A DNA stretch of 64,000 nt from a plasmid, in the sequence record CP089609.1; one strand, 5' to 3'. The notes below the pieces were generated by a model. That model saw nothing but the letters and a program-made list of their open reading frames with translations. It searched no databases and was not told where the DNA came from. Within the stretch, counting starts at the first letter, position 1. Every line of letters begins with the position of its first letter. Made by a program: the position numbers and the translations under genes. Positions 23,437 through 63,995 of the stretch are shown in pieces.

Positions 23437-23458
23437 TATACACCGCTACCGGTGTATA
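23437..23458. promoter_or_regulatory. Operator-like palindrome TATACACC-gctacc-GGTGTATA (copy 1); right half carries a TATAGT -10-like hexamer
   Basis: Perfect 8-bp arms with a 6-nt spacer, 38 nt upstream of the 23496 start. Confidence 0.6.
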
Positions 23459-23495
23459 GTGTCGTCGTGAGCGTCGCTGACCGCCAGGAGCATTC

Positions 23496-24518
23496 ATGAG
23501 CACCACCATTGCGTTGGCCGATGTCTCAGCGATATCACAAGGCTTCGCGGAATTCACCATGACGGCCAGCTCCATCGTCGCCTTCTGGATCATGCTGGGC
23601 GGTGCGGCGAAGGCCATCGTCGACCTCGTCAAGGGTCGCGGACCGGTCGCCGCGATCCGCACCCTAGGTTTCAGTGCGGCGCTCTGCGCACCGCTGTGGC
23701 TGCTCCCCACAGTCTTCAAGACGCTGCTGCACGCGGACACCGCATCCACACCGACCAGCGACGCACCTACCTCCCCGAGCACCTCGGCGGCGCCCCCGAG
23801 CACACCGCCCGCGTCGCCAGCGCCGCAACCAGACGTAGACCCCACCTCATGGCTGGTCCCGATGGGTATCGCCGCAGCCGGGATCGCGGCGATCGCCGCC
23901 CTGATCGGGTCGAGCATCGTGATCGCGCGAATCATCGCCGGACGCCGGACTGCCCGTCGGCAGGCCACGCAGCGCCGGGCGGCGCAGCTGCAGCGTTGGG
24001 CCGCCGGCGAGAAGGCCCTCACCGCCACCTCTGCGGCATTGATGGAGTTCGAGTCAGATGTGGAGTCGGTGTATTTCACCCGGCCGCTGCTGGCTGATGT
24101 CACAGAGCCCCTGTCAGCTGCGTTCTACACCGCCTACAGCGACGCATTGTCCCTTCAGCTCGATACCGTGCCGACCGACGACGATCAGATCGCCGCCTTC
24201 GTCACCGCCGCGAACGCTGCACACCGCGCGTTCACCGCCGCCAACGACAGTGCGTTACACAAGGCACGGCGCGGCGTGGTTCACGGCGACCGCGAACTCA
24301 CTCCCGCAGAAGCACGCAAGCTCGGCCATGCCCGCAAGCTCTTCGCCCAAGCCCTCGATCCGGCCAACACCACGGAGGCAGCGGCCACGGCTCATTCCAA
24401 AGCCCAGGATCTGCTCGACGAGGTCGGCCTGATCGTCCCTGAACGTCTGGCCTCCACCGTGGTGCGCAGCATCGAGGCTCTACACCAGCCCGCCCTCACC
24501 ACCGGAGCCCAGCAATGA
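23496..24518 (+). CDS. Membrane hypothetical protein (Pro/Thr/Ser linker, 2+ TM)
   Basis: 340 aa. Start lies 38 nt downstream of a TATACACC-N6-GGTGTATA palindrome. Confidence 0.55.
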   Translation: MSTTIALADVSAISQGFAEFTMTASSIVAFWIMLGGAAKAIVDLVKGRGPVAAIRTLGFSAALCAPLWLLPTVFKTLLHADTASTPTSDAPTSPSTSAAPPSTPPASPAPQPDVDPTSWLVPMGIAAAGIAAIAALIGSSIVIARIIAGRRTARRQATQRRAAQLQRWAAGEKALTATSAALMEFESDVESVYFTRPLLADVTEPLSAAFYTAYSDALSLQLDTVPTDDDQIAAFVTAANAAHRAFTAANDSALHKARRGVVHGDRELTPAEARKLGHARKLFAQALDPANTTEAAATAHSKAQDLLDEVGLIVPERLASTVVRSIEALHQPALTTGAQQ

Positions 24519-24775
24519 GCACACCTATCCCGCCGGCCACTCCCGACCAGGAATGGACCTATGTCGATCTCCCCTACTGGACGGCAACGGCCCGGTGGCC
24601 GGCCTTGACCGCGATCAGCCTCTGGGTACATGCCCACGCCGGCTGGCCCCCTTACCAGATGACAGTCATCTCCATGGCGATCGTCGCCACGTTCACGTTC
24701 ATGGGTTGTGCAGATTGGCAAGACCGCCGCGCCACCCGCCGCCGCGACGCCCCGACCATCGAAGAACTCCGCTGA
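24515..24775 (+). CDS. Small membrane protein
   Basis: 86 aa. ATGA overlap with the upstream gene. Confidence 0.5.
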   Translation: MSTPIPPATPDQEWTYVDLPYWTATARWPALTAISLWVHAHAGWPPYQMTVISMAIVATFTFMGCADWQDRRATRRRDAPTIEELR

Positions 24776-24784
24776 AAGGCTCTT

Positions 24785-25255
24785 GTGAAGCTCAACAACG
24801 CCGCACTGATCACCGCGGACGCTGACGACCTCTCCTTCTGCATCAACACAATCCGCGAGAATCCGCACCTCGGGACGTGGTTGTCCATCGAATTCGACGG
24901 TGCGGGCAGCACCGCCGTCGTGCGCGTGACTTCAGCGGCCCTCATCAGCGATACCGACGACGACTACTGGGCGCTGGACTGCGAGATCACCGAGATCCAT
25001 TCGGCTCCCGGGATCGACGTCGGCTACCGCGTGCACGATCAGTGCACGCTGACCACCCCAGCCGATAGCCACTCTCACGAGGCACACCCTGACGGCTTTC
25101 TGTCCCTGCCCGACCCTCCTCGGGGATCGGGATTGCCGCACCAAACGCCAGAGCGCGATGTGCAAGAGCCCGACGAGCAGCAAAACGTGGCTCCCGGCTC
25201 CACTCGCCTGGCTCTTCAGCAAGACACCACCCATGCCAGCCGACATTCCGCCTGA
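24785..25255 (+). CDS. Hypothetical protein
   Basis: 156 aa with a GTG start. Confidence 0.4.
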   Translation: MKLNNAALITADADDLSFCINTIRENPHLGTWLSIEFDGAGSTAVVRVTSAALISDTDDDYWALDCEITEIHSAPGIDVGYRVHDQCTLTTPADSHSHEAHPDGFLSLPDPPRGSGLPHQTPERDVQEPDEQQNVAPGSTRLALQQDTTHASRHSA

Positions 25256-25282
25256 TGAATGACCGGATGTCGCCCACCGACC

Positions 25283-25302
25283 GGCATATACCTCCGGGCA
25301 TG
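25283..25302 (+). promoter_or_regulatory. Leaderless motif copy c (GGCATATACCTCcGGgCATG)
   Basis: Ends in the start codon of 25300-26487. Confidence 0.5.
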
Positions 25303-26544: not shown

Positions 26545-26612
26545 ACCAGCCAACAGCAGATGTTACGGTACGCTACCATTATCGAGCTTGTTATGGTACG
26601 GTTCCATCATGG
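26545..26612 (+). repeat. Copy B of the repeated element; overlaps the hipB promoter and start codon
   Basis: See copy A. It ends in CCATCATGG, which contains the hipB ATG. Confidence 0.6.
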
Positions 26613-26896
26613 TGTCTGACGTGCGTGAACAGCTAGCCCAGCTCGGGTCGCAGCTCCGTCATGCCCGGCTGGCAGCGAAGCTGAGTCAAGACGAGCTCGG
26701 CCGGCGCGCGGGTATATCCCGCCAACTGATCAGCCGCATCGAATCCGGCCACCCCAACGGGGAGATTTCCGCTGTCGCCGCAGTCGCCGACGCCCTGGAC
26801 TATCGCCTCACCGCAGTGCCCCACAAGGAGCCCAACCGAAGCGAGCAAGCCGCCCTCGATCTGATCAACCGACTCCGCGACACACCCACCGTCTGA
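26609..26896 (+). CDS. hipB: XRE-family HTH antitoxin HipB-like
   Basis: LSQDELGRRAGISRQLISRIESG is a classic XRE HTH. The stop overlaps the hipA start (TGATG). Confidence 0.7.
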   Translation: MVSDVREQLAQLGSQLRHARLAAKLSQDELGRRAGISRQLISRIESGHPNGEISAVAAVADALDYRLTAVPHKEPNRSEQAALDLINRLRDTPTV

Positions 26897-28323
26897 TGCC
26901 CTCGGATCTGGTTGTCGTCCTCAACGGTGAAGTCGCCGGGGTGATCAGCCACGAATTCGGCCGCCCTCGCTTCGCCTACCTCGACAGCTACGCCTCGGTC
27001 GCCGGCCAAACCCCACTGTCCTTGTCGATGCCGCTACGCATCGGCCACCTCTACGGACACCGCACCACCGCACCCTGGCTCTCAGGACTTCTGCCCGACG
27101 ATGCCCGGGTCCGTGAACGGTGGGCACGGGAGTTCGACGTCTCCCCCGACAACCCGTCAGCACTACTGGAGCACCTCGGCCGCGACTGCGCCGGCGCCGT
27201 CCAAATCACCCCACCGGATTCTCTCCCCCAGCTCCTCACCCAGTCCGGCCACCTCGAACCAACCACCGAGTCCGCCATCGGCGCACGACTGCGCCAGCTG
27301 CACACCGAATCCGACCACTGGACTCGCGACAACGACCGCTGGAGCCTGGCCGGCGCACAGTCGAAGTTCACCGTTGCCTCCACTGACGACGGGTGGGCCT
27401 GGACCCATGGCACGGCAGCCAGCACCCACATCATCAAACCCGGCATCACCCGATTCCACGACCAGGCGCTCAACGAACACTTATGCCAGCGCGCATTCGC
27501 CCTCATCGGCATCCATGCCGCCCGCACGGCCTATCACGAATTCGACGGCACCCCAGCCATCGTCGTCACCCGCTATGACCGCGTCATCGACGGCGACGGA
27601 ACCGTCACCCGCATCCACCAGGAAGATATGTGCCAAGCGCTCGGAGTCTGGCCACACAAGAAGTACGCCTCCGACGGCGGGCCGTCGGCCGTCGCGATCG
27701 CCCAAATGCTCGGCCGCTCGGCCACACAGCACGACGTCGACCGCTTCACTGATGCTGTTGTCGCGCAATATCTTTGCGGAGCTCCCGACGCGCACGCGAA
27801 GAACTACAGTGTCATCCTGGCCGGTGACCACGCCGCCCTGGCACCGGTTTACGACGTCGCCAGCGTGTTGCCCTACCACCCCGACCCAAACTCCGGTCTG
27901 GCCCGCGTCGCAATGCCCATCGCCGGGCACAGCCGCTTCGGCGACGTCGATCTGCACTACGTCGAGAAGTTCGCTACCACCGCCGGAACTGACCCCGACC
28001 GCCTCGTCGCCCGCGCCCGCGAAATGGCCGCCGACCTCCCCGACGCCATCTCCACCGCAGCTGCAGACATCCCACCCGAAACCCTGGGATCCATCGCCGA
28101 CCAACTCAGCACCGGAATCTCCGAACACTGCGCCACACTCGACCGCCCGCCCACCAACACCCGGCGCCGACGTCTACCCCCGACCGACCCCGAACCCGAG
28201 CTGGTCCGAGACGCAGAACCCCTCGACGACACCATCCCGGTCGTCGGACACTCCCGCGGCGGCCACCCCATCACCGCCCACCGCCGCCACCGCCCGGGCC
28301 AATCGCTGAGCCGCCCCAGCTGA
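26896..28323 (+). CDS. hipA: HipA-family Ser/Thr kinase toxin with Pro-rich C-terminal extension
   Basis: HipA N-terminal couple domain; catalytic motifs WSLAGAQSKF and CGAPDAHAKNYSV (the D-x-H-x-K-N loop); DVASVLPY. Confidence 0.8.
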   Translation: MPSDLVVVLNGEVAGVISHEFGRPRFAYLDSYASVAGQTPLSLSMPLRIGHLYGHRTTAPWLSGLLPDDARVRERWAREFDVSPDNPSALLEHLGRDCAGAVQITPPDSLPQLLTQSGHLEPTTESAIGARLRQLHTESDHWTRDNDRWSLAGAQSKFTVASTDDGWAWTHGTAASTHIIKPGITRFHDQALNEHLCQRAFALIGIHAARTAYHEFDGTPAIVVTRYDRVIDGDGTVTRIHQEDMCQALGVWPHKKYASDGGPSAVAIAQMLGRSATQHDVDRFTDAVVAQYLCGAPDAHAKNYSVILAGDHAALAPVYDVASVLPYHPDPNSGLARVAMPIAGHSRFGDVDLHYVEKFATTAGTDPDRLVARAREMAADLPDAISTAAADIPPETLGSIADQLSTGISEHCATLDRPPTNTRRRRLPPTDPEPELVRDAEPLDDTIPVVGHSRGGHPITAHRRHRPGQSLSRPS

Positions 28324-32904: not shown

Positions 32905-33402
32905 TCAGCACCCGAAGCCCGGCGCAGCCAGGGTCAACCAATCAAGAATTTCGCGTTGCGGCAACGTCCATCCGTCGAGCGGGAGTTGTGCCACCACAAC
33001 GTGTTTATATGCCTGATATACCTCAGGCAGGACCGCGCAGCCGTCGTCGCATGCCGTGCAACACACGCGATATGACGGTGCAGCGCCCTGGGCCTGCCTC
33101 GACGTTGCGGTCTCCGCCGCGGTGAGCGGTTGCAACGTATCTCCATCCCAGCGGGCCCATACTTTTCCACTGCCCGAGCACACCGCGCATCGTGCGCGTG
33201 GGCCGAGCGCATGGATCAGCAATGAGCGGGCCAGGTCGGCCGGGCTGGATCCTTCGTAGCCCCAGCTAAGTCCCCCTGGGGCATGTTTGACGATGTGCGG
33301 TAGTGGCCCGACAACATGGTCATCGATCTCGATGACGACCAGCCGGGGTCCGGCGGGGTTGTCTGGACGGTATCCGCGATAGGTGACCGTACATCCGCTC
33401 AT
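32905..33402 (-). CDS. Hypothetical protein
   Basis: 165-aa ORF. Confidence 0.45.
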   Translation of the reverse strand: MSGCTVTYRGYRPDNPAGPRLVVIEIDDHVVGPLPHIVKHAPGGLSWGYEGSSPADLARSLLIHALGPRARCAVCSGSGKVWARWDGDTLQPLTAAETATSRQAQGAAPSYRVCCTACDDGCAVLPEVYQAYKHVVVAQLPLDGWTLPQREILDWLTLAAPGFGC

Positions 33403-33459: not shown

Positions 33460-33481
33460 AATACACCCATATCGGTGTATT
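33460..33481. promoter_or_regulatory. Palindrome copy 2 (aATACACC-catatc-GGTGTATt)
   Basis: 7/8 arms; upstream of 33639. Confidence 0.5.
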
Positions 33482-33638: not shown

Positions 33639-36053
33639 ATGTGCTATTCATGGCTCATGGTGTTCAACACTCCCGAGTTTGGCCGTATCGCTCGATCAGC
33701 TCGCGGTGAGCTCAGCCAGGACGACATCACCACCCGCGGCGGACCACCCCGACAACGACAGTCACCGATCGAGCGCGGCGATCGCGTCGAGCTGTCTGAC
33801 ACGGTTCTGGCCCAGCTGGACATGGGCTATGCGTGGGCGCCGGACACCGCCCGCGCACTGCTGGTCCGGCCCTCACGGCCGGAAGGATTCAGTGAGCAGT
33901 TCAGCGCACTGTCGGCAAACGCTTTGGGACTGGATGAGGACGGTGCCGACGTCCCACTGCCCGATCTCCTCGTGACCCGCTGTGCTCGCGACCTTCTTCC
34001 CGTCATCACGCGGTGGCCGGGACCTGTGCTGATCGGCGTTGCCAACGACGCCATGGCCCGCCGGGACCCCGATTCGCTCGCGGCGCTGATCGAGAACTGG
34101 GATGCGTGGACCGACGATGCCGATGATCCGTACCGCCGGCGCGAGTTCCATCTGCGCGCCGGATTACACAGTCCGGCCGCAGCTTCGGCGATCGCTCTGG
34201 ATCCCATCGTTGCCGTTCGCTCCTTCCGTCAAGTGGTTGACCTGTTTCTTTCGCTCGCCAAAGTGCAGACCTCTGTAGAACATGAGACTCGCGAAACGCT
34301 TGAGAAGCAGGCGTTTACGCTCCTGTTCGTTGCCAGTGAGGCTCGCCGCCGCGGTCTCGGCGCCGGGCTGAACGCCTTGGACGATCTGGCTGGCTTCATT
34401 CGTCAGGAACCTTCCCACGGTCTCGGCTGGCGGACCCCGCGCGACGGCGGCTGGGATGTCCAGAGCGATTGGGAGACGTTTCGCAACCACACCGGGCTCA
34501 GTTCTCGTTTCGAGAAGCCTCATGCCGGCCTCATCGCGGTGCTCGACGGTCTCAACGCCATCCGTGATTTCCACGTCGACGCCGAACTTGTCGATCCCTA
34601 CCCCGATGGTCTGGTCAATCCCGACGATCAGTACGACCCTGATCGGGCCGTTCAGCCGACGACGCAGCCTGCCATGCGCGCGATCACCGATCTCGACGAG
34701 ACCATCTTGTTCTACAACGCATCGTTGTGCCCAGAACTGCCGGTGATCGTCGACTGGGCCTATCGCGGACGTCCGCACCCACCACTGGTTATCAGTGACT
34801 TCCACGATACGACAAGGGGTTTGAGTAGCTCCAAGTTCATCATGGTCGACAACAACGCCGAGCTCGACACCGAGATCGCGAAGGCGCCGTTGTGCTCGCG
34901 CCTGGTGCAAACCGACAGCTTCGGGCGGGCAATCTTCGTCCCGGCCCGTTCGGCTTCAGGGCCGTCGCAGCCGGCCAGACACGTCTGGTTGGCTCGAAAT
35001 GGACGCATCACCTCCAACCGGTATGACGGTGCATCCCGTCTCACCTCGGCAGCCGCAGCCACCGAGGTTCGCGATTTCTACGACGCCCACAAGGACTCGC
35101 TGGGCCCTGTCCTCTACGCCCATCACAACCGCTTCGCCAGCCGCAGTCCCCTGCTCACCCTGGTCGACAACACTGGGCATCAAATGCTGCTCTGGGGACC
35201 ACCGGACCTCAAAGAGCGTGAGCACGGTCCGGGGATCGCTCCGGTAATCACCCCGACGCGCATGGCAATCGCATCCATCCTCGAGGAGGCGGGGTTCGGC
35301 TCGGTCCAGGCGATGATCGACGAAACCCACACCGCCGACAGAAGGCTGTTTCGCTCGAACCCTGATCTCGTGCTGACGTTCGACGTAGACCACGGTGAGG
35401 CCCAGCGCCAACTCGTCACCGTCAACGCCACTGAATTCACCATTGGGCTCTGCCTTTCCGACGACGAAGGCGCCCGCGAGCTGATGATCGACGCGATCTG
35501 GCGGCTCTGCAACGAGCGACCCACCCATGAGATCCGGGTGCTCACACTCATCGGGGAAAACCTATCGACGGACAGCCCGTGGACCGACATCACCAGGCAG
35601 CCTCACCTGTTGGCACACTTCTCACCAGCCAAACCGGCCGACCTCGATACCGTCCTGGAGAAGTTCAACGCGACGCTGCAACACGAAATCGACGCTCGCG
35701 AGGCGGTCCCCCGCCAACCCGGGATCTCCGGAATGCCCGCCCGCCGACAGCCTTTGCCGCACCTTCTGGTCGCCATCGACGGCTTCGCCGACGCCGAACG
35801 ACTGCTGCGTTCACCGGCGTTCTGCTACGCAGTGCAACACGGTAAAACCCTCGGTATCCACGTGGTGCTCTGCGGTCCCGGCCAGGCACTGGATTCCTAC
35901 AACCACCTCGACTGCTACCACGTCCCCAGCGCCGGACCGATCGTCATCGACTCAGAGGGGAAGTACCGCCCAGGGATCCCGAAGGTGGAAGGCGTCAACA
36001 CGCTCCCGGGGTCAGGGTCACAAAACCTAGCCGCCAACCCTTTCCAGCGGTAG
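33639..36053 (+). CDS. Large hypothetical protein with C-terminal degenerate FtsK-like domain (Walker B only)
   Basis: 804 aa. The C-terminus has PHLLVAIDGFADAE and KTLGIHVVLCGP, which correspond to the Walker B and arginine-finger regions of the FtsK-like proteins at 6177 and 36840. No P-loop was found. Confidence 0.6.
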   Translation: MCYSWLMVFNTPEFGRIARSARGELSQDDITTRGGPPRQRQSPIERGDRVELSDTVLAQLDMGYAWAPDTARALLVRPSRPEGFSEQFSALSANALGLDEDGADVPLPDLLVTRCARDLLPVITRWPGPVLIGVANDAMARRDPDSLAALIENWDAWTDDADDPYRRREFHLRAGLHSPAAASAIALDPIVAVRSFRQVVDLFLSLAKVQTSVEHETRETLEKQAFTLLFVASEARRRGLGAGLNALDDLAGFIRQEPSHGLGWRTPRDGGWDVQSDWETFRNHTGLSSRFEKPHAGLIAVLDGLNAIRDFHVDAELVDPYPDGLVNPDDQYDPDRAVQPTTQPAMRAITDLDETILFYNASLCPELPVIVDWAYRGRPHPPLVISDFHDTTRGLSSSKFIMVDNNAELDTEIAKAPLCSRLVQTDSFGRAIFVPARSASGPSQPARHVWLARNGRITSNRYDGASRLTSAAAATEVRDFYDAHKDSLGPVLYAHHNRFASRSPLLTLVDNTGHQMLLWGPPDLKEREHGPGIAPVITPTRMAIASILEEAGFGSVQAMIDETHTADRRLFRSNPDLVLTFDVDHGEAQRQLVTVNATEFTIGLCLSDDEGARELMIDAIWRLCNERPTHEIRVLTLIGENLSTDSPWTDITRQPHLLAHFSPAKPADLDTVLEKFNATLQHEIDAREAVPRQPGISGMPARRQPLPHLLVAIDGFADAERLLRSPAFCYAVQHGKTLGIHVVLCGPGQALDSYNHLDCYHVPSAGPIVIDSEGKYRPGIPKVEGVNTLPGSGSQNLAANPFQR

Positions 36054-36102: not shown

Positions 36103-36714
36103 CTATCCGCAGATGCTCGACTCGTGTTGGCGGTAGAAGGTCCGCGCGGCCGGCACCTCATCGGCGTAGGGCCCCAAGAACGCCGCTCTTTGCACTGCTT
36201 GCGCGGCAACGGCTTCCGGCATGTGTTGCCAGCCCGCGATCTTCTGCAGCGCGTCGAAGAACCGATGGGCGGCCATGCTCGGCGTCATCCGCTCGACAAC
36301 CGAACCCCAGTCTGGGCCTTGCAGAAACAGTCCCACGGCCTGGCCGTTGTCGAGGGCCAGACCGTCATGGCGCATCGCGAGGGATTCCGGCACGCGTGGG
36401 TTCGCCACATTCCGCATTCCGGTTTCACGCTGTGCGGCGATCAGTCCGGCGACGATGCCTCGCTGGGGGATCCCCATGTGTCGTCCGGTCGAGATGATCG
36501 ACACACCGTAGTCGGCCGGGCCGCTCACCTCGTGAGAGCATGGCGCCGCCGCTGTCGTCTCGGGCGCGGCGATAATGTCCGGGCTGACTATTCGAAGGCC
36601 CGCCAGCACCGGCGCGGCCAGCGCAATAACCAGGGAGGCCGCGGCGCCCAGGACCAGCCGCCGGCCGCGGCGATCGCCGCCCGCGCCCAGCACGCGCTCT
36701 TCAGGTGTGCTCAT
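36103..36714 (-). CDS. Secreted transglycosylase-like protein (paralog of the central domain of 3726-4922)
   Basis: GQAVGLFLQGPDWGSVVERMTPSMAAHRFFDALQKIAGWQHMPEAVAAQAVQRAAF aligns with GSIGIMQQQWPWWGTMQELMTPAIAARKFYEALLKVANWQNLPVTVAAQSVQGSAL. N-terminal TM. Its start sits at a conserved leaderless motif. Confidence 0.65.
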   Translation of the reverse strand: MSTPEERVLGAGGDRRGRRLVLGAAASLVIALAAPVLAGLRIVSPDIIAAPETTAAAPCSHEVSGPADYGVSIISTGRHMGIPQRGIVAGLIAAQRETGMRNVANPRVPESLAMRHDGLALDNGQAVGLFLQGPDWGSVVERMTPSMAAHRFFDALQKIAGWQHMPEAVAAQAVQRAAFLGPYADEVPAARTFYRQHESSICG

Positions 36715-36731
36715 GTCCTGAGGTATATGCC
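36712..36731 (-). promoter_or_regulatory. Leaderless motif copy d (minus strand) for 36103-36714
   Basis: The reverse complement reads GGCATATACCTCAGGACATG. Confidence 0.5.
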
Positions 36732-36822
36732 GGCACGCTCGCTGATCCGGTCAACTGGCTGCGCCTCCGATCGAGCCGCCCGTCTCTGACGCCGGATGTG
36801 TGACCGGAATAATCGATGGACG

Positions 36823-36842
36823 GGCATATACCTCAGGGCATG
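36823..36842 (+). promoter_or_regulatory. Leaderless motif copy e for 36840-37610 (divergent from copy d, 110 nt apart)
   Basis: GGCATATACCTCAGGGCATG. Confidence 0.5.
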
Positions 36843-38229: not shown

Positions 38230-38283
38230 CCCTGCCCAACACCCAACCATCGCCGCCGCGGTGACAGGATTGGCATGCGCGCC

Positions 38284-38303
38284 GGCATATACCTGTGGTC
38301 ATG
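38284..38303 (+). promoter_or_regulatory. Leaderless motif copy f for 38301-38807
   Basis: GGCATATACCTGTGGTCATG. Confidence 0.5.
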
Positions 38304-40835: not shown

Positions 40836-41216
40836 GCATTGGTGACGGGAAGCGTCGCGATCATCGTGTCGAATCGCCTTCTTTGATCTCGACGTGACGC
40901 GTCATAGCTGGTGACTCTCCTTCACATCCCCTGTGGTTGTACCGGCCAGGGTGACCCAATTCTGGTCATCGTCTCATTGGCGATTGTTTCCGCGACAGCC
41001 GATTCGTCGGCTGGACAGCAACACCCGCCACTACCAGCGGATTCACCCACGGCGGATACACCGCATTCGGTCTATATTTGCCACCACCCCTGTCCGCCCT
41101 CCTCGATGGCGGCGCGAGAGGGGCGATCGCACAGACCCCGTCCGCCCGTGCTCTTGAAAGACCCCATGCCACCCGAAAACCGGCAGCCCTGGACTGACCG
41201 GATCAGCCAACCCTGT

Positions 41217-41236
41217 GGCATATACCTCAGGTCGTG
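41217..41236 (+). promoter_or_regulatory. Leaderless motif copy g (GTG variant)
   Basis: GGCATATACCTCAGGTCGTG, upstream of the family-A gene 41398. Confidence 0.45.
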
Positions 41237-47162: not shown

Positions 47163-47224
47163 GGGAGCTGGGAGGCCTTCGGCCCGCCTACCGCGCCCGA
47201 TAGCCTGGTCCACGGACCGACTTT

Positions 47225-47246
47225 TATACACCCTCGCCGGTTCATA
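47225..47246. promoter_or_regulatory. Palindrome copy 4, degenerate right arm (TATACACC-ctcgcc-GGTtcATA), between divergent genes 47162(-) and 47556(+)
   Basis: The left arm is perfect; the right arm has 6/8. Confidence 0.4.
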
Positions 47247-47537
47247 GTGTGATGTAGGGGCACCGCCCTCGATCCGCATTTCATGTTGGAGCACCAAGGG
47301 ATATGACGCTCGCCGATGCGGCACTATTCGGTTACGCCAGCACCGACAACGCTCGGCCACCGGCAGTGGTGATGAGCTACGGCATGGGCCTGGATTCATC
47401 GTCATTGTTGCCGACCGCAGCTGTACTGCAGGGAATGTGACTGAGCACCTCACACACGCGGTGTGGGCGACACACACCCCGTGTGGGTCGCCTGGCTAGA
47501 GATGCGTACTGATCGTTGACCGGATCTCCGAAACCCC

Positions 47538-47558
47538 GGGCATATACCTGTGGGCATG
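47538..47558 (+). promoter_or_regulatory. Leaderless motif copy h for 47556-48902
   Basis: GGGCATATACCTGTGGGCATG. Confidence 0.5.
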
Positions 47559-48902
47559 AGCAACATGTCGACTCAGGCGACGACACTGGATGCCTTCAAC
47601 GACGCCCCGCACACCTGGATCGAATGCTGGGATGAGGAGGTCGAGCCGCTGCGAGCCGCGGCGCTGGCCGCCGGCTGGACGTGGCATTGCGTTGATACCT
47701 CCGAGGATCTCCCGGCCCTGCTCTGGGCCCTTGAGCTCGCCAGTTCCCGCCACCAGAACCTCATGCCGGCAGAGCGCCGGCGCTATCTGGCGGCGGTCGG
47801 CCACGTCGTGATCGCCGTCGGCCCCGGCTACCAGGGCAGCTACCGCTATCTGAGGTGGATTGCACGGGCGGGAGCGCGCACCGGAATTCACCTGGCTGTC
47901 GCTGCCAGCCACCGTCGAAACCCCCTGGCCCCTCAGGATCTCAAGGACGGCATCACCGATCCACCGAGTGCGTACGTGGGCCCGGTGTCCGGCTGCGCAG
48001 CCGCCGCGCGGTCCAGCGAGCACCCGTGGCTGCCCACGTCGCCCGATGGGCACGGGCCCGACGACTACAGCGCACCGGCGGCCGGTCTCCTGGGTGCCTT
48101 CCGGCATCGCCTGCGCCGGCGTCGTAACGCCGATCGTCGAGTCCGTCCAGAGCAGCGGGTGTGTTCGGAATCGGATCTGGCTTGGCTCGATGACGATCCT
48201 CGGGTTCAGCTGATCGTCGCTACGGCCACGCGCGAGGGATGGCGCCGTGAACCTGGCGCCCAGACGGCTGTGTGGCGGTTCGTGCACGACATCGGGACAA
48301 CCCTCACGGTGCACTGGGGGACTCCGGAGATGCCGCTACTTCACGCCGCAGCGACCGCGACGGCGACGGTACGTTGGGGCGCCGTCACCTTGCCCGTCCT
48401 GGTAGCTGCCGGCGACACCGCCAGCAGCCCGGCCGACAACATCGTCTTGGCTTGCGACGCCGACGCCCAGTGGATCGAATCGCAGATCGATCGGGTTCAG
48501 AACTTTCTCCGTAGCCATCCCGCCGAATATCGCGTCATGTCCCAGATCTCGGCCGACCCGCGCGCGCGTTCGGTGATCAATACCGCTGAGCAACACGGCT
48601 GGGAAATTCACCCGCACGACGTGGACAGGTGCACCTTCGCCCGAGGTGGAACCGAGATCTGGCTTCGCTGGGGCATCATCGATTGCCCATGGCCATTCCT
48701 CTATGCGCACACCGCCCCGCACGGCGATGGGCCCTCCGTCTACCTCTCTCATGGGGATGATCCTCCCGAGGAGCAGCTCGTGGCCATGCTGCGATTCCTC
48801 GCGGCCCCAGACACCGGCCCAACAGGCGCTTCCTCCAATGCAATCGAGCCGAAAGGCCACAGCTTCGAGTTAGGAGACACATCACTCAATACACCTAAAT
48901 AG
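47556..48902 (+). CDS. Hypothetical protein, paralog family A (long form)
   Basis: Homolog of 41398-42315 (see above). ATG 47556 sits at a leaderless motif. The stop overlaps a palindrome copy. Confidence 0.55.
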   Translation: MSNMSTQATTLDAFNDAPHTWIECWDEEVEPLRAAALAAGWTWHCVDTSEDLPALLWALELASSRHQNLMPAERRRYLAAVGHVVIAVGPGYQGSYRYLRWIARAGARTGIHLAVAASHRRNPLAPQDLKDGITDPPSAYVGPVSGCAAAARSSEHPWLPTSPDGHGPDDYSAPAAGLLGAFRHRLRRRRNADRRVRPEQRVCSESDLAWLDDDPRVQLIVATATREGWRREPGAQTAVWRFVHDIGTTLTVHWGTPEMPLLHAAATATATVRWGAVTLPVLVAAGDTASSPADNIVLACDADAQWIESQIDRVQNFLRSHPAEYRVMSQISADPRARSVINTAEQHGWEIHPHDVDRCTFARGGTEIWLRWGIIDCPWPFLYAHTAPHGDGPSVYLSHGDDPPEEQLVAMLRFLAAPDTGPTGASSNAIEPKGHSFELGDTSLNTPK

Positions 48903-48909
48903 GTGTATT
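48888..48909. promoter_or_regulatory. Palindrome copy 5 (aATACACC-taaata-GGTGTATt), overlaps stop of 47556-48902 and lies 73 nt upstream of the Rnl1-like gene
   Basis: Seen directly. Confidence 0.55.
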
Positions 48910-48981: not shown

Positions 48982-50076
48982 ATGACCGCCGTCACTGATG
49001 TGTTCAGCGAAGACGAACTCGAGGCCGCCATCGGCAGCGGGTTCATCGAGTCTTTCCGGCATCCTCAGCTGCCACTGACCATCTACAACTACACCGAACG
49101 CGCCCAGTTTGAGACCGCCTGGAACGCCGCCACCCGCGCGTGCCGGGGCCTCATCGTCAACGACGATCGCCGGATCGTCGCCCGCCCCTGGGCGAAGTTC
49201 TTCGAGTACAAGCCGGTAGGCGGACAACACGGCCCCGTGGACCTCGACGCAGCTGTCGAGGCCACCGATAAGGTCGACGGATCTCTGGGCATCCTTTACC
49301 CCGCCGGCCACACGTGGGCGATCGCCACCCGTGGATCCTTCACCGGCAACCAGGCCGCTCACGCCACCACCCTCTATCAGCAGCGCTACGCCGGCGCCTG
49401 GTCCCCTGATCCCGAACTGACCTACTTGTTCGAGATCGTCTATCCGGACAACCGGGTCGTCCTGAACTACGGCGACACAGACGATCTCGTCCTTCTCGGC
49501 GCTTGCCGCATCGCTGACGGTGCATCCGTTACAGCAAGTTCGATCGGCGACTGGCCGGGGCCGCGTGCACAGACTCTGCCGGTCACAACCCTTCGCGATG
49601 CGTTGGCCTTCCCAGACCGGGCCAACGCCGAGGGCCTCGTGGTGACCGTGGTGGAATCCGGCCTCAAACTCAAACTCAAACAACGCGATTACGTACTCCG
49701 GCATCGCATGGTCACCGGGATGTCGGCGCTGGCGGTATGGGAGTACTTGGCCACGGGTGCGGGGATTTCAGGTCTGATATCGGATGGGCACCTTCCCGAC
49801 GAGCTCCACGACTGGGCCCGCGCCGTTGTCGCCGAGCTGCAAGGCCAGCATCTCGCGCTCAAAGATGCCGCCGAACAGGCACATGCAGAGATCATCGCGC
49901 GCCTCGAACCCGGGCACACCCGAAAGGACTATGCCGCCGAGGCTGTCAAACACGCTGACCTGAAAGGCTTCCTGTTCGCGCTCGCGGACGGGCGCCTGGA
50001 CAAGTTCGAGGCTGCGTTGTGGAAGTCCGTTCGACCTGATGCCAACGAACTGCGCTCCGAAGGGGCTTCCCGATGA
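48982..50076 (+). CDS. T4 Rnl1-family ATP-dependent RNA ligase
   Basis: Motif I TDKVDGSLGILY (compare T4 Rnl1 LTKEDGSLVSTY). N-terminal LTIYNYTERAQF...RACRGLIVN...RIVARPWAKFFEY parallels T4 Rnl1 RIFSYNYASYSDW..ALECRGIMFE..VRIASRPMEKFFNL. Later EGLVV..SGLKLKLKQRDY parallels [20 protein letters not shown]. About 364 aa, the same size class as gp63. Confidence 0.8.
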   Translation: MTAVTDVFSEDELEAAIGSGFIESFRHPQLPLTIYNYTERAQFETAWNAATRACRGLIVNDDRRIVARPWAKFFEYKPVGGQHGPVDLDAAVEATDKVDGSLGILYPAGHTWAIATRGSFTGNQAAHATTLYQQRYAGAWSPDPELTYLFEIVYPDNRVVLNYGDTDDLVLLGACRIADGASVTASSIGDWPGPRAQTLPVTTLRDALAFPDRANAEGLVVTVVESGLKLKLKQRDYVLRHRMVTGMSALAVWEYLATGAGISGLISDGHLPDELHDWARAVVAELQGQHLALKDAAEQAHAEIIARLEPGHTRKDYAAEAVKHADLKGFLFALADGRLDKFEAALWKSVRPDANELRSEGASR

Positions 50077-51122: not shown

Positions 51123-51144
51123 CATACACCGCTTCGGGTGTATA
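51123..51144. promoter_or_regulatory. Palindrome copy 6 (cATACACC-gcttcg-GGTGTATA, TATAGT)
   Basis: 43 nt upstream of the 51187 TTG start. Confidence 0.55.
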
Positions 51145-51186: not shown

Positions 51187-51522
51187 TTGACAACCACCGC
51201 TGAGCAGTTGGCCGCCTACAAGGCGCAGATCGACGCAAAGTATGCACGTGGCTACGTCCCGGCGAAATCTGCTGCCGCGCAGCGCCACCAACGGATCGCC
51301 GAGGACCGCGCTCAGCCCGGCTGGCTACTCCTCGATCCGAACGGTGTCGTTGACGGCTTCCACACCTACTCGCGTGATCTCGGCTGGGACACCACTGAAA
51401 ACGTGTGGGAGAAGTTCGAGAAGCGCAAGCGCGACCGCGAACGGCTGCAGTCAGAGGGATGGACGGTCATCCGCGACGACGGCCGAGTCCGCAACACAAC
51501 CCCGACAGCCAACGAACCGTGA
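51187..51522 (+). CDS. Hypothetical protein (TTG start, GAGGAGGG SD)
   Basis: 111 aa. The start is 43 nt after a palindrome copy. Confidence 0.5.
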   Translation: MTTTAEQLAAYKAQIDAKYARGYVPAKSAAAQRHQRIAEDRAQPGWLLLDPNGVVDGFHTYSRDLGWDTTENVWEKFEKRKRDRERLQSEGWTVIRDDGRVRNTTPTANEP

Positions 51523-51708: not shown

Positions 51709-52179
51709 ATGTCCACACAGCCCAGGACGAGGCCGCTGACCGACAACCAGCTCGAAGTGCTGCGTCAGTTCGGTTCCGAGACCGGCTGGCTGCGGCCACT
51801 GGACCTCGGCGGGAGTAACCGCTCCAACCACAGCGCGGTCCTGGCGCAGCTGCAACGCCGCGGCCTCGTCGACTCGAAGGTCCGCTCACACGGCGTACGA
51901 GGCTCCAAGCTCTACAGGATCACTCCCGCCGGCCGCCACGCACTCCTGACTCGCACCACAGCGGTGAACACGCCAGGAGGCGTGGAACACGGCGGGTCTG
52001 AATCCACACCCCAACATCGCCCTACCACCGCCGCCCGGTGCCGCGCACTCGCCGACCAGCTGGACACAGCGGACCCGACCAAAGCATCGAACTACCGCCA
52101 GTTCGCCGACGCGCTCGACCACAAAGACATGGGCGCAATCTGCGCCGTCAGTGCATCCATCAACCACACCGTCGGCTGA
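51709..52179 (+). CDS. Winged-helix (MarR/PadR-like) DNA-binding protein
   Basis: LTDNQLEVLRQFGSETGWLRPLDL...NHSAVLAQLQRRGLVDS...KLYRITPAGRHAL. Confidence 0.5.
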   Translation: MSTQPRTRPLTDNQLEVLRQFGSETGWLRPLDLGGSNRSNHSAVLAQLQRRGLVDSKVRSHGVRGSKLYRITPAGRHALLTRTTAVNTPGGVEHGGSESTPQHRPTTAARCRALADQLDTADPTKASNYRQFADALDHKDMGAICAVSASINHTVG

Positions 52180-57209: not shown

Positions 57210-57282
57210 CCGACAAGTCCCCTTTCTCACCCCGACACTGACAATTGGATCGCCCACTGCTGACCGGATCGCCGGACCAGCC

Positions 57283-57302
57283 GGCATATACCTCCGGGCA
57301 TG
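57283..57302 (+). promoter_or_regulatory. Leaderless motif copy i for 57300-57713
   Basis: GGCATATACCTCCGGGCATG. Confidence 0.5.
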
Positions 57303-57713: not shown

Positions 57714-57816
57714 AAGTCAGGCACCGGGCCGCCTGCCACACTGAAACGCACGGCATTGCCCCCGGCCCGCCGTTGCCGATGTTCACCTCGCCGGTGACCG
57801 GATCACCGAATCGGCC

Positions 57817-57836
57817 GGCATATACCTCAGGTCATG
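57817..57836 (+). promoter_or_regulatory. Leaderless motif copy j (tiny ORF, then 57948-58220)
   Basis: GGCATATACCTCAGGTCATG. Confidence 0.45.
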
Positions 57837-59666: not shown

Positions 59667-60700
59667 TCAGGCGGTGGGAATAGTGCGGAGCGCGTTCATA
59701 ATTGCCGCGTTCTCCCGCGCAAAGTTGAACACAGTCGGCGGTGCCAACCATCGGCCATCATCTGGCACGTCAAGTGCGGCTGACGCGGGGCGCATCACGA
59801 GAACATGGTGAGACCCAGCCGCTCGCCCCAGCCCCACCCGGTAGCCGACATTGCCGATCAACTGACGCATATCCTCTTCGCAACGGTCACTGTCGCGAGG
59901 GTTCAACCAGGACAGGACGTGTATGCCCAGACTCGCGCGCGCCTCGGCCGAACCTATCCGCTCCAGGGGAAACATGGAGCTCGCGACGCCGCGGCCGACC
60001 GGTGCATCGATGATCGCCACCAAATCTGGCAACACCGGCGCGTCCGGGGCAGGTCGGCTTGCCTGTACGCGCCGATGCTGTCCACGCAATATGCGGCCAG
60101 AATGTCTTGGCGCCGTTGATACTCGCACCGGAGCACCTCACCGAGCTCATCGACAATCGGCGATACTCCCGCTCCAAACGGATCGTCGGCGCTCGGGGTG
60201 CGCATCCAATGCTGCAGAACGTGAGGCAGTCCCGTCGGCAGGTCCGCAAAAGTGCCCTGTCCAAACGCGTCTAGATCCGCCAGCAGTAGATTGACCCGCT
60301 TCGGGAGTACTGCAAGCAGAGCGCCGCCGCGGCGGCGGCGAGGAGAGTGCTTTTGCCGAGACCCCCACAACCTCCAGCAACGAGGCCGAAGATCAAGCCA
60401 GGTACCCCGACGGTGACCACGGCCCCGTCTTCGTCGTAGCCCACCGGGATCTGCAACTCTGAGTCGTGCTCATGGGTCCGCCAGACACCGGCGGGGTCGA
60501 AACCTCTGGTAGTGATACCGAGAGCTTCAGCGAAGCTGGGCACGATGGACGTCCGAGTGACAGCTCGGGCTGCATCGCGATATTCGCCGCCATACTTGGC
60601 TTGGTGGGCACGCGCGGCTTCTTTGCGGGCATTGTTTCGCTGGCGGGGATGATTGGTCACGAGAGGCCTCCATTGCTTACCTTCGGGCGCACCCCACACA
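59667..60700 (-). pseudogene. ParA/MinD/CpaE-like ATPase remnant spread over three frames (two apparent frameshifts)
   Basis: Minus-strand ORFs 60798-60271 (..VTVGVPGLIFGLVAGGCGGLGKSTLLAAAAAAL), 60370-59954 (..RVNLLLADLDAFGQGTFADLP..) and 60128-59667 (..LVAIIDAPVG...VLVMRPASAALD...) together read as a ParA-like protein. Confidence 0.45.
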
Positions 60701-61094: not shown

Positions 61095-61116
61095 TATACA
61101 CCGCCTCAGGTGTATA
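61095..61116. promoter_or_regulatory. Palindrome copy 7 (TATACACC-gcctca-GGTGTATA)
   Basis: About 100 nt upstream of the deaminase-fusion gene. Confidence 0.55.
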
Positions 61117-61213
61117 CAGCGGATTGGTTGGACACCTCCGTTCTCGCGCACATTTTCCAGGTCATGCGCCCATCCTGCGAACTTGATCACCTCCGGACAG
61201 TTACGCTGCGCGG

Positions 61214-62628
61214 GTGGTTACCAAGGGCCCGGAACTGGTCATCGGTCTCGTCGCACCGCTGGGCACGAGCACCACCGAACTCGCCACCGAAGTCAAAGGC
61301 GCACTGGCGGCGTACGGCTACAAGCCGGTCATCATCAAGATGTCTGACCTGATACCCGGATCCGGCCCGCTCGGTGAAGCAGAAGATGACCGGATCCGCC
61401 GGCTTATCGCTGCCGGCAATGCCTTCTGCAAAGCAAACGACGATGACCCGGCCGCCCTGGCCCGGCTCGCTATCAACAGAATCCGCGCCAGCCGCATCGA
61501 CCTGCTACGCCAAACCGGCGATACCCGTCCCACCGAGGACCTGGTCATCGGTGGCCGGCCACGCACCGCCTACATCATCCAGTCACTCAAGCGGCTCGAC
61601 GAAGTCCAGCTTCTGCGCGAGGTCTACGGCAGCCAGTTCATCCTCCTGGGCAGCCAGGGCACCCTCGAACAGCGCACCGCCAGCCTGATGCGGTTGAGCC
61701 TGTCCTCGCTGCCCGAATCCAGCCGCCGTGATCTGGTCAAACTCCTGATTCAGGTCGACGCCAAAGACGACGACCCGCTCGGACAGAACGTCAACGCCAC
61801 CTACCCGCAAGCCGACTTCTTCATCCGCAACAACGCCCGCAGTGAGATCGACAGGGCGATCGGGCTGCTGTTCGGAGCTTCCATCGCACCCGAGATCGGT
61901 GAATTCGCGATGTATGTGGCCCGGGCCAGCCGCGCCCGTTCCCTGGCCGCCAGCCGCAAGGTCGGCGCAGCGATCGTCGTCGGCGACGCAGTCGTTGCCA
62001 CCGGCTACAACGACGTCCCCACGGCCAGGAGGCCGACATTCTCGAAGGCGTCGACACCAGTGAACAGTTCAAACGCGACAACCTCTCAGACACTCTCCGA
62101 CGTCTCAAGTCCGCCGGCATGCTCAACGACGCCGTGACCATCGACGAGGCCGCCGTCTCCGCGGCCGCGGCCGCTCTCAAAGGTGGAGACCTGCTGAGCG
62201 TGATCGAATACCAGCGCGCCGTCCACGCCGAGGCCAGAGCCATCGACGACGCCACCATCCGCGGCGTCTCCACCGTCGACGGCATCCTCTACGTCACCAC
62301 CTTCCCGTGCCATCTCTGCTACAAGCACGCCCTGTCGGCACGGATCAAACGCGTCGAATACATCGACCCCTATCCCAAGAGCCGAGCCGTCCAGATGTAC
62401 CCCGTGGATGTCGAAGAACGACTCATCCCGTTCACCGGCGTCGCACCACGCCGCTACTTGGAGATTTTCGACGACCGCCCCGCACCCCAATCGGACGAAT
62501 CAGGGAGATTCCCCACACACGACCCGAGCGTCGCACAGCCACTTGTCGGACCCGTGAGCGAAGATGACAGCCGAGCCGACAAAGAACGCCGCGCGATCCA
62601 CCGGTTGAAGGAGCAGTACCGAACATGA
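61214..62628 (+). CDS. Two-domain protein: N-terminal kinase-like domain (degenerate P-loop) + C-terminal CMP/dCMP-type zinc deaminase; apparent -1 frameshift at CCCC run near 62018-62022
   Basis: The deaminase motifs RKVGAAIVVGDAVVATGYNDVP, HAEARAI (the zinc-binding HAE motif) and PCHLCYKH (PCxxC) are split between ORF 61214-62137 and ORF 62119-62628. The N-terminus has VIGLVAPLGTSTTEL, a P-loop-like GxxxxGT/S motif without the Lys. Confidence 0.6.
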
Positions 62629-62798
62629 CGCCACTACCAGGCCTGACCCCTCAGGACCGCGACTACCTGGCCAGATCAGCTGCCGACTTCAGCGACATCG
62701 ACGCCCGGACCCTCGCAAGAATCGACGCGGGTTTCGAGCGCGCGCACCAAACCGCACGAGGGATCGCCAACGGATTCCTCGACCCACTGACGCACTGA
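62625..62798 (+). CDS. Small ORF (57 aa) coupled by ATGA overlap to the deaminase gene
   Basis: Overlap only. Confidence 0.3.
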   Translation: MTPLPGLTPQDRDYLARSAADFSDIDARTLARIDAGFERAHQTARGIANGFLDPLTH

Positions 62799-62820
62799 CG
62801 AGTCACGGGGCGCTCACTGC

Positions 62821-63258
62821 ATGTCGAACGTGATCGACCGAAGAAAGAGCTTGCTGGCCCGATTCACAATGGACGACGGATGGCACGCACCGGAGATCAT
62901 CCTCGACGAAGACGCTTGCACAACGGCGGGACGCGCGCAGTATCGATCGAAATGCTCATGTGGCGTCGTGTCGCCCGCCACCGACAGCGCCATGGACGCC
63001 CTTGTGGCTCATACCGCGCACGTTGACACCCGCCTCGGACCTTCACACCTCGGCGCACGGATCGCACTGCTGATGTCGGTAATGCTGATGATCTGCGTCG
63101 GCTGCTACATGATCGGTGAGCTCCTCACCCACTCCTACAGCCTCGCCGGCACAACGGCCGCGATCGTGCGCGCCGGATCGTGCATCGTCGGCTTCGCAAT
63201 GGCCTTCAGCCTGATGCTGGCCGTCCGCCGGTTCATCGGGCCCACTCGCCACGCGTAG
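62821..63258 (+). CDS. Membrane protein with Cys-rich N-terminal region
   Basis: 145 aa with 2 TM helices. Confidence 0.45.
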   Translation: MSNVIDRRKSLLARFTMDDGWHAPEIILDEDACTTAGRAQYRSKCSCGVVSPATDSAMDALVAHTAHVDTRLGPSHLGARIALLMSVMLMICVGCYMIGELLTHSYSLAGTTAAIVRAGSCIVGFAMAFSLMLAVRRFIGPTRHA

Positions 63259-63291
63259 TCGATAAACGTAACGGAAAGGGCACCACGGGAA

Positions 63292-63645
63292 ATGACAGAC
63301 ATCAGCAACAGCGTTCAAGCTCCGCGCGGATGGGCAGTCCTGGACCATCACTACAACGACCGCGACTTACCCGAACCGTTCAGATCACTGGGATTCGACT
63401 CCAACAACCTCGGCGCTTCCGTGTGGCTGAACCTGGGAACCGGCGCGATGGTCGGCGCCATCCCGACCGGCCTCTGGAAACAACGCGCTAAATACGCCTT
63501 CTACCACGTCGCACCGAACGCTGGCCAAGCAATCCCGATGCCAGCATGGACCTACGAGCAGCCACAGTGGGATGGGTCCAACGTCAACGAATGTGTTCGG
63601 TTGCACGACGCCGCTATCGAGTACTTCAATAAGCTCAATGATTGA
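63292..63645 (+). CDS. Hypothetical protein
   Basis: GGAAAGGG SD; 117 aa. Confidence 0.45.
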   Translation: MTDISNSVQAPRGWAVLDHHYNDRDLPEPFRSLGFDSNNLGASVWLNLGTGAMVGAIPTGLWKQRAKYAFYHVAPNAGQAIPMPAWTYEQPQWDGSNVNECVRLHDAAIEYFNKLND

Positions 63646-63973
63646 CAACAGCAGTGATGGCTCGTCGCGAACCGGGATAATCGCCGATGGCTATCGCTAC
63701 GGCACTGATTGAGCAGTAGTCTCACGACGGTTCTCGACACACATCGATTCCCGATTACGCTGCCGCTCGCCTCGACGGCGTATACGACCTACCCGCGGTC
63801 GCCGAGCACGCAGTGGACCAGCTGGAAGCCAAGTCTCCGTTCGCATTCGAGCTGGGCCTTCTAGTCGAAGCATTCTTCGGAAACGACGAAGAAGTTGCGG
63901 TCGGGGTATCTGAAATGTTCCCCGACGAGAGACGCACCGCATCAAGTGGTCGAGTGGTTCCAACCCTACACCG

Positions 63974-63995
63974 TATACACCTGCTGCGGTGTATA
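63974..63995. promoter_or_regulatory. Palindrome copy 8 (TATACACC-tgctgc-GGTGTATA, TATAGT) at window end
   Basis: Perfect arms; an extra TACACC half-site lies just upstream (63966-63971). Confidence 0.55.

Follow-up and report, generated by a model that had tools for sequence, protein, structure and literature searches.

A recurrent 22-bp palindrome of a putative mycobacterial conjugative element probably combines a promoter with the operator of a two-part repressor

Results

Occurrence and position of the palindrome

The DNA analysed here, a stretch of 64,000 nucleotides (nt) from plasmid sequence record CP089609.1 (termed the window, to which all coordinates refer; L-numbers designate relative loci or contigs), appears to be part of a mycobacterial mobile element and carries repeated copies of a 22-bp palindrome, TATACACC-N6-GGTGTATA. 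Nine matches are found at no more than three mismatches, against 0.06 expected, and none of 100 shuffled versions of the window contained more than one such match. A position weight matrix (PWM) built from 23 sites retrieved a tenth, degenerate copy at 13036, which scored 19.5, the highest score in 20 shuffles being 13.1. An earlier note on this DNA had listed eight copies (23437, 33460, 42377, 47225, 48888, 51123, 61095 and 63974); all eight are present at these coordinates, but the count was incomplete, the copies at 41055, with two mismatches, and at 13036 having been missed. The spacer is strictly 6 nt long, a scan of spacers of 0–14 nt returning only re-registrations of the same sites and an isolated match with three mismatches at 45523. 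Outside the palindrome, the half-site GGTGTAT occurs at two places only in the window (24068 and 50682), and an unbiased enumeration of the perfect palindromes with 7-bp arms and at least three copies in the window recovered this motif alone.

Non-coding DNA harbours every copy but one, that at 48888, which covers the last codons and stop codon of a gene, although ~87% of the window is coding according to our own open reading frame (ORF) calls; the intergenic or gene-end placement before starts that had been described for the eight sites thus holds for every copy. The minus-strand ORF 46587–47477 seemed to contain site 47225, but this part of the ORF does not represent a real gene, because the protein-level match there corresponds to a conserved plus-strand gene start (ATG 47303). 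The distance from a site to the next start is ~37–157 nt, and just 9 nt at the dnaB copy. Further copies are located to the right of the window end (L007 13483; L011 14080 and 14149). The same site therefore stands at several promoters of a single element, with ten copies before operon starts of the window, which is the arrangement expected of a repressor operator of the Reg576, KorA or ArdK type.

The degenerate copy AATACATCggtgcgGGCGTATT (13036–13057, plus strand) is followed by GT, 7 nt and the dnaB ATG at 13067. The perfect palindrome TATACACCgctaccGGTGTATA (23437–23458, plus) is extended by GT into the putative −10 hexamer TATAGT and lies 37 nt before ATG 23496, which heads an operon reaching up to hipBA (26588–28323). 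Palindrome AATACACCcatatcGGTGTATT (33460–33481), to which no strand is assigned, occupies the divergent intergenic region between a DUF6166 gene (32905–33402, minus) and the gene of a protein of 804 amino acids (aa; 33639–36053, plus), and its ortholog is kept in L218 at 965. Copy GATACACCgcattcGGTCTATA (41055–41076, plus) is followed by TT, giving TATATT, with a copy of the second motif described below (41217) and a gene at 41398–42315 downstream; its deviations from the consensus are identical in L218 at 8564. Copy TATACACCcttttaGGTGTATT (42377–42398, plus), extended by GT to TATTGT, lies 116 nt before a ribbon-helix-helix (RHH)-like gene (42515–42805). Copy TATACACCctcgccGGTTCATA (47225–47246, plus) has a decayed right arm and precedes a 43-codon truncated remnant of a PP-loop-like gene (47303–47434) that displays the motif SYGMGLDSS. 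In L218 the ortholog of this site is perfect (12667) and the PP-loop-like gene is intact (12742–13947, 401 aa), as it is in M. hubeiense, where its 5' part is visible at the edge of locus L072; the decayed arm is consistent with relaxed selection after loss of the gene from the window.

Copy AATACACCtaaataGGTGTATT (48888–48909, plus), followed by GT (TATTGT), overlaps the stop codon of gene 47556–48902 and is located 72 nt before an Rnl1-like ligase gene (48982–50076), the L218 ortholog of which matches RNA_lig_T4_1. Copy CATACACCgcttcgGGTGTATA (51123–51144, plus), followed by GT (TATAGT; TATAAT in L218), lies 42 nt before gene 51187–51522, behind which the same operon continues with a winged helix-turn-helix (wHTH) gene (51709–52179). 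The two remaining palindromes are perfect. The one at 61095–61116 (minus) has its TATAGT extension directed toward a minus-strand DUF6884/FtsK-like operon found in relatives, with the deaminase gene (61214–62629) on its plus side, and the one at 63974–63995 (plus), followed by GT (TATAGT), reaches the window edge; the gene behind it, visible in L007 (10759–11448), encodes a 229-aa zinc-ribbon-like protein.

Sequence constraint on the two arms

In the six sites orthologous between the window and its relative L218, the arms are identical at 93 of 96 positions (97%) and the spacers at 15 of 36 (42%), while the 40-nt flanks, compared without gaps, display 35% and 54% identity. Non-consensus arm bases (A1/T22, G1 and C18) are kept between the two elements. 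In L219 the genes are 72–83% identical and the intergenic DNA is unalignable, yet sites are found at the same gene junctions, and in L009 and L011 the changes fall mostly within spacers. A logo of 23 non-redundant sites reveals that positions 2–8 and 15–21 are near-invariant around an unconstrained, AT-rich centre, with an information content that returns to background upstream of position 1 and beyond position 24. The unit therefore does not belong to a longer repeat, which rules out a miniature inverted-repeat transposable element (MITE). A repeat of this kind, with conserved flanking sequence, had been named in the earlier note as the outcome that would undo its proposal; the flanks are in fact unrelated between copies and divergent between orthologs.

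Seven sites display a change in one arm only (four at positions 6/17 and one each at 5/18, 2/21 and 3/20), and in none of the seven is the change compensated in the opposite arm. This argues for recognition of double-stranded half-sites rather than for a hairpin. Fixed N6 spacing, selection on the half-sites alone and the lack of compensatory change are the symmetry properties expected of an operator for an oligomeric protein; two identical half-sites read independently by a symmetric protein would explain the pattern, and a structural role would not.

A putative promoter within the palindrome

Only two conserved positions of the 23-site logo break the symmetry, G23 (17 of 23 sites) and T24 (20 of 23), the mirror position −2 being T and not A. 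Together with T19 and A20, T24 completes a TANNNT hexamer that faces the downstream gene in 20 of the 23 sites. Positions 19–24, comprising the last four bases of the right arm and the two flanking bases, read TATAGT, TATTGT or TATAAT. TANNNT is the −10 consensus of mycobacterial SigA, whose promoters commonly lack a −35 element. Where two sites share one divergent intergenic region (L072 441 and 488; L011 14080 and 14149), TATAGT or TATTGT is directed from each site toward its own gene. The arrangement TATTGT-N7-ATG occurs twice, at dnaB (13036) and at L011 14149, and would be the spacing expected of a leaderless mycobacterial transcript. These features support the earlier suggestion that the right arm itself supplies a −10-like hexamer.

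A second conserved motif

The palindrome is not the sole start signal of the element, a second conserved module heading ten other genes. GGCATATACCT has ten exact copies in the window against 0.31 expected, always with TGACCGGAT 13 nt upstream. The complete unit, TGACCGGAT-N13-GGCATATACCT-N6-ATG(A), extends over 5225–5266, 23321–23362, 25261–25302, 36712–36753 (minus), 36801–36842, 38262–38303, 41195–41236, 47517–47558, 57261–57302 and 57795–57836. The motif is also present in L218, L219, L035, L107, L134 and L136–L139, and ATG or GTG lies exactly 6 nt after it in 27 of the 29 distinct copies across the family. This codon mostly starts a long ORF (5264, 25300, 36714 on the minus strand, 36840, 38301, 47556 and 57300); other copies start a mini-ORF of 9–45 codons, the stop of which may overlap the next start codon. 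Mini-ORFs behind either motif include L035 737–790, L107 1557–1500 (minus), window 41234–41368 and L136 6354–6392, and in L035 and L107 the stop overlaps the start of a downstream GmrSD_C-like gene (GTGA/ATGA). This suggests leaderless upstream ORFs with translational coupling.

In the second motif, 7 nt separate TATACC from ATG, just as they separate TATTGT from ATG in the leaderless palindrome copies. The final T is missing from this motif (no TANNNT), and its upstream box is 20–21 nt from TATACC, too far for a SigA −35; from these features it looks like a non-canonical promoter class for leaderless mRNAs. Both motifs occur together in every family member sampled at length, and in the viral collection the second motif was not found apart from one chance-like match. 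It may be the more unusual feature of the region.

The palindrome in other genomes

Mycobacterial matches among the first 120 listed in the genome scan derive from M. hubeiense QGD101 (two scaffolds), Mycolicibacterium sphagni and a Mycobacterium metagenome-assembled genome (MAG). Each comprises two sites close together, the second site of M. sphagni falling just outside the stored stretch, and the contexts are mobile-element-like, with a RadC-like gene, a PP-loop gene, a GmrSD_C-type nuclease and homologs of window genes. The metagenomic contig L136 carries three sites and no protein detectably similar to those of the window, its genes including a C5 methylase, DUF2786, a DNA ligase and a WhiA-like HTH (helix-turn-helix) protein. 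The motif is thus not private to one element: several mycobacterial mobile elements that differ in gene content carry it, and it would be the signal of a mosaic family of such elements rather than of this element alone. Literature searches with the arm sequences or the second motif returned irrelevant primer-type matches only.

The same arms were observed in three other settings. An identical TATACACC-N6-GGTGTATA, in one copy and often with the spacer TGnnCA, is located 16–124 nt upstream of integron integrase genes (identified by TIGR02249, 491 bits) at no fewer than ~51 loci among L013–L132, for example L023 2088, L027 6627 and L030 132. The hosts are Betaproteobacteria and relatives (Thiobacillus, Gallionella, Nitrosomonas, Methylotenera, Azonexus, Vogesella and others), and this copy is probably an unrelated regulatory or att-region element. 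IMG/VR contigs of 30–40 kb (~50% G+C) and an Actinomyces MAG contain three to five exact copies of the arms; this Actinomyces-type phage group comprises L087, L151, L168, L184, L186, L201, L215 and other IMG/VR loci. In its unit, a 10-bp stem encloses a constant loop, TTACAT or, in a sister group, ATACAC; a CTTT tail follows, and the unit lies ~19 nt upstream of a TATAAT box. This unit was judged to differ from the window palindrome, and its organization suggests repeated terminator-promoter or activator-promoter cassettes. Finally, in another viral group, at L192 34–468 (also L145 10227–10661, and L152), two exact and two degenerate palindromes flank a 75-aa XRE/HTH-type gene (162–389), in what looks like an immunity-type operator cluster. 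No relative of this 75-aa protein was detectable in the window family.

Candidate regulators

The best candidate for the regulator, albeit a weak and tentative one that is more probably wrong than right, is the 96-aa protein with an RHH-like core encoded by 42515–42805 (plus), the first gene behind site 42377, where autoregulation would be possible. A library-wide profile search with this protein identified 35 small homologs, with which a confident AlphaFold2 model was built (predicted local distance difference test score, pLDDT, of 81.6), a model from four sequences being too poor. The model displays an extended N-terminus, helices at residues 16–29 and 33–49 and a third helix. RHH repressors dominate the Foldseek matches (Reg576 first, then CopA, CopG, Arc and antitoxins), all with E > 0.8; the match to Reg576 (6gyg_B; E = 0.81, 18% identity) is non-significant, and just two members of the protein family touch Pfam RHH_9. 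Two results count against this candidate: the region around a homolog with 50% identity in L230 has no site within 6 kb on either side, and no homologs were seen in the sampled parts of other site-bearing elements. The gene therefore keeps the place among the regulators that the earlier note had given it, with a predicted RHH-like fold in place of the HTH or wHTH fold proposed there.

The wHTH protein encoded by 51709–52179 (plus), weakly similar to PadR and Rv3488, had also been proposed. It is disfavoured, as its DNA-binding domain is well conserved in site-free elements: ~80% in L221, L224, L225 and L227, where 13–20 kb contain no palindrome. The conserved domain (LTxNQxEVLxQFGSExGWLRPLDLGGxxxSNHSAVLAQLxRRGLVESKVRS...GSKLYRITPAG) is carried by otherwise different mycobacterial mobile elements (L221 10001–10267, L224 10001–10627, L225 10001–10288), among them a region of M. 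abscessus and an element that also carries type IV CRISPR-Cas genes. Likewise proposed in the earlier note, the small wHTH protein encoded by 4912–5277 (plus) belongs to the conjugation backbone and is the sole protein detectably shared with the distant L138, which bears the second motif; a search for its homologs identified close ones only, on very short contigs. HipB was rejected as the regulator, having its own, different inverted repeat at its start (26567–26605), and so were the HTH_17/MerR-like proteins of the window, L136 and L219 as a shared regulator, these not being homologous to each other. Pfam and NCBIfam scans of the backbone and candidate proteins returned almost nothing, and no KorA-, KorB- or ParB-like protein was detected in the window.

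The element and its relatives

The window has a G+C content of 64%. Its left part has genes of conjugation type and encodes, by Pfam assignment, a VirB4-like AAA_10 ATPase (16–1545), an NlpC/P60 hydrolase (3726–4922), an FtsK/TrwB-like coupling protein (6177–8246) and a DnaB helicase (13067–15157). The 696-aa DnaB matches in two stretches, an N-terminal domain at residues 15–117 and a C-terminal best-matching stretch at 450–687, with extra sequence between them that may be an intein or other insertion. A DUF3375 and SbcC-like pair follows on the minus strand (17253–22592, Pfam); it comprises the DUF3375 protein and a 1120-aa SbcC/MukB-like ATPase, a Wadjet- or condensin-like pair on an apparent conjugative element. 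From ~23 kb onward the window is a long, almost unidirectional array of mostly unannotatable genes, in which hipBA, a higBA-like pair, an RNB RNase, an Rnl1-type RNA ligase, a D12-class methyltransferase and a deaminase fusion are recognisable. The 804-aa protein, formerly described as FtsK-like, has no FtsK match in Pfam; a search with it found two distant Mycobacterium plasmid matches only, and 41 kb around one of these contain neither motif.

Near-identity searches of phage and plasmid record collections returned no close match to the window. Near-identical copies are present in several public read-set assemblies (L001–L012), diverged relatives are L218 (84–86% DNA identity) and the more distant L219 (Mycobacterium sp. 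SWH-M3), and a further relative, L009, is located on a 240-kb contig of GCA_039668315.1. From its gene content and relatives the window was assigned to an undescribed family of mycobacterial conjugative plasmids or integrative elements, of which it would represent one part. Relative to L007, otherwise 99.9% identical, the window has six single-base deletions (56229, 56362, 57759, 60046, 60303 and 62017), which split an FtsK-like 331-aa gene (59667–60662, minus) and the 471-aa deaminase gene (61214–62629) into apparent fragments. These deletions are most likely assembly errors in the source of the window, and not the mark of pseudogenes.

Discussion

The data suggest that each copy of the palindrome combines a SigA-type promoter with the operator of an oligomeric repressor, as in the plasmid regulons of Reg576, KorA and ArdK, an interpretation well backed by sequence comparison and to which we assign a probability of roughly 0.6. 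Positions 19–24 would constitute the −10 hexamer of a mycobacterial SigA-type promoter firing toward the downstream operon, and the two 8-bp arms would be half-sites of a dimeric or dimer-of-dimers DNA-binding protein; about one helical turn separates their inner cores, ACACC and GGTGT, across the AT-rich centre. Polymerase recognition involves neither the inner arm bases CACC/GGTG nor any part of the left arm, and a second protein therefore seems to be needed. The most economical mode of action would be repression by occlusion, because a protein bound to this site would cover both the −10 hexamer and the spacer and exclude RNA polymerase. A single regulator would keep about ten operons in a shared off state. 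These operons appear to be of accessory, defence or establishment type (RNA ligase, deaminase, PP-loop protein, the hipBA operon, dnaB and membrane proteins), and their joint release would most plausibly be transient and follow entry of the element into a new cell, by analogy with the establishment regulons of plasmids. Protein binding, repression, its timing and the element-encoded nature of the regulator are all points that we infer from sequence patterns. The dimeric HTH repressor site overlapping a promoter, as put forward in the earlier note, stands in so far as the dyad, the fixed spacer, arm conservation and the promoter-proximal position fit an oligomeric protein, its repressing action being a prediction. 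Taken together, the palindrome most probably unites a promoter and the binding site of a two-part repressor, a well-known means by which plasmids coordinate large sets of genes.

Several observations weigh against this interpretation. No −35 element is recognisable at the sites, either in the 23-site logo or in the sigma-70 scan, and a simple sigma-70 consensus scan called no promoter at any of them. TANNNT is present on neither side of site 33460, and at site 61095 toward the minus strand only. The same 16 specified bases occur in unrelated settings, so that the sequence is not diagnostic of one system, and protein co-occurrence revealed no regulator common to all site-bearing elements in the sampled DNA.

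Other modes of control were weighed against repression. It is distinctly unlikely that the palindrome is a positive control site, at which an activator or polymerase-recruiting factor, host- or element-encoded, would bind the dyad and drive a co-activated gene set. Promoters lacking a −35 element may be weak alone, and in the Actinomyces-type phage group the same palindrome occupies an activator-like position upstream of its TATAAT box. However, the dyad of the window covers the −10 hexamer and the whole spacer, a position normally occluding polymerase, and −35-less SigA promoters are common enough in mycobacteria that no activator is needed. A host chromosomal transcription factor, whose site several unrelated mobile elements would have co-opted with no element-encoded regulator, is unlikely. 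This would account for a motif shared by elements whose proteins display scant or no detectable similarity (the window family, L136, L035/L107/L129 and L072) and for the lack of a common small DNA-binding protein beside the sites. It is at odds with the genome scan, in which 5 of the 120 loci among the matches listed are mycobacterial, all in mobile-element-like contexts, with 41 kb of M. avium plasmid pP3-3a containing no site, and with the constant company of a second, element-specific motif. We know of no mycobacterial operator that matches the palindrome. MerR-type activation geometry, CRP-like sites and a restriction-modification recognition site were dropped by reasoning on geometry or sequence.

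Readings in which the palindrome acts other than as a protein-bound promoter element fare worse. A nucleic-acid hairpin, whether it were to terminate or attenuate transcription, to direct RNA processing or stability, or to form in single-stranded DNA during conjugative transfer, is very unlikely. Perfect copies fold as 8–9-bp hairpins (−8 to −10.5 kcal/mol) with an unconstrained loop, and one of nine copies, with a T-rich tail, is flagged as terminator-like; but two copies fold poorly (−1.3 and −3.9 kcal/mol), the T-tract is missing in eight of the nine, and it is the arm sequence, not pairing, that is kept across unrelated contexts, arm changes remaining uncompensated. Termination is impossible for the copies in divergent regions (33460, L072 441 and 488, L011 14080 and 14149), and an intrinsic terminator was rejected on these grounds together with stems that are AT-rich at the base. 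A structured RNA element was rejected on the same uncompensated changes and on an Rfam search that returned no family at gathering thresholds; if the −10 assignment is correct, the hairpin would in any case be untranscribed. A dispersed selfish repeat of MITE type, or a recombination or module-junction site, is scarcely credible. Relatives do differ in gene content near some copies, one L007–L009 homology break lies ~80 bp from a site and the identical palindrome stands beside integron integrase genes in Betaproteobacteria. Against this, conservation does not extend beyond the palindrome into the flanks, neither terminal repeats nor target duplications are present, the indels that distinguish the window from L218 fall away from the sites, and the oriented G23/T24 and fixed pre-start position are unexpected for a repeat or att site.

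If the palindrome is indeed a repressor-gated promoter, the gene set is probably an establishment or anti-defence regulon with a burst of expression after transfer, and a principle shown for Gram-negative and Bacillus plasmids would extend to Mycobacteriales. A broader and quite speculative proposal, on balance doubtful, is that the two motifs are two promoter classes of a self-contained programme in a mosaic mycobacterial conjugative family, one SigA-type and locked by a repressor of no recognisable family, the other non-canonical, leaderless and in need of an element factor, which together would produce a phage-like two-stage cascade after transfer. Little is known of gene control in mycobacterial conjugative elements, and one 22-bp site heading about ten operons, including those of the RNA ligase, deaminase, PP-loop enzyme, hipBA and replicative helicase, offers an experimental handle. 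The palindrome and second motif also form a signature for spotting this otherwise unannotatable element family in genomes and metagenomes.

Comparison with known regulatory systems

KorA and KorB of RK2 and ArdK, KorA and StbA of R388 act on palindromic or repeated operators over many promoters, some overlapping the −10, and these networks combine coordinated negative control with a burst of expression on entering a new host. In contrast to the window, their regulators are known, and the sequences, proteins and hosts are unrelated. The operators of XRE-type antitoxins provide a lead only: E. coli HipB binds TATCC-N8-GGATA and M. tuberculosis HigA binds ATATAGG-N6-CCTATAT. Like the palindrome, these have half-sites that are AT-rich outside and GC inside, a fixed 6–8-bp spacer and promoter overlap, and the window encodes HipB and a HigA-like protein; unlike the palindrome, they serve their own operon only, and no palindrome lies directly before hipB or higBA.

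Among mycobacteriophages, Cluster O genomes contain a 17-bp dyad repeat, TGTTCGGNNNCCGAACA, with a free centre and an unknown binding protein, about a third of the copies lying inside genes and not tied to promoters, while Cluster A stoperators are asymmetric and oriented with the direction of transcription (PMC4351075). The window shares with both a short conserved site in many copies (dozens there) across a mycobacterial mobile genome, and differs in that its motif is exclusively intergenic and fused to a −10 hexamer. A stoperator proper, an asymmetric site of 13–14 bp, was rejected for the symmetric 22-bp dyad, which is intergenic only and has no near match in phage records.

On plasmid p576 of Bacillus pumilus, the RHH repressor Reg576 acts at four promoters of establishment genes as well as at the promoter of its own gene (Val-Calvo et al. 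2018, PMC6294495). Two dimers bind each operator, in which direct TTATCCC repeats lie 2 bp apart, mostly upstream of the −35; the four promoters lie within 8 kb, and derepression of the genes after transfer is transient (PMC6294495). The window site differs in consisting of inverted 8-mers 6 bp apart, placed on the −10, at no fewer than ten promoters over 50 kb and in a mycobacterial rather than a Firmicute host; binding was demonstrated for Reg576, whereas the operator of the window is a predicted one. Membership of the Reg576 family proper was rejected, given the inverted 8-6-8 dyad with no direct heptamers and the fold match of the 42515–42805 product reported above. Functionally, Reg576 of p576 nevertheless appears to be the closest case by analogy, as in both a short motif is repeated at accessory or establishment promoters of a conjugative element and an RHH-like gene, 42515–42805 in the window, lies behind one of the sites.

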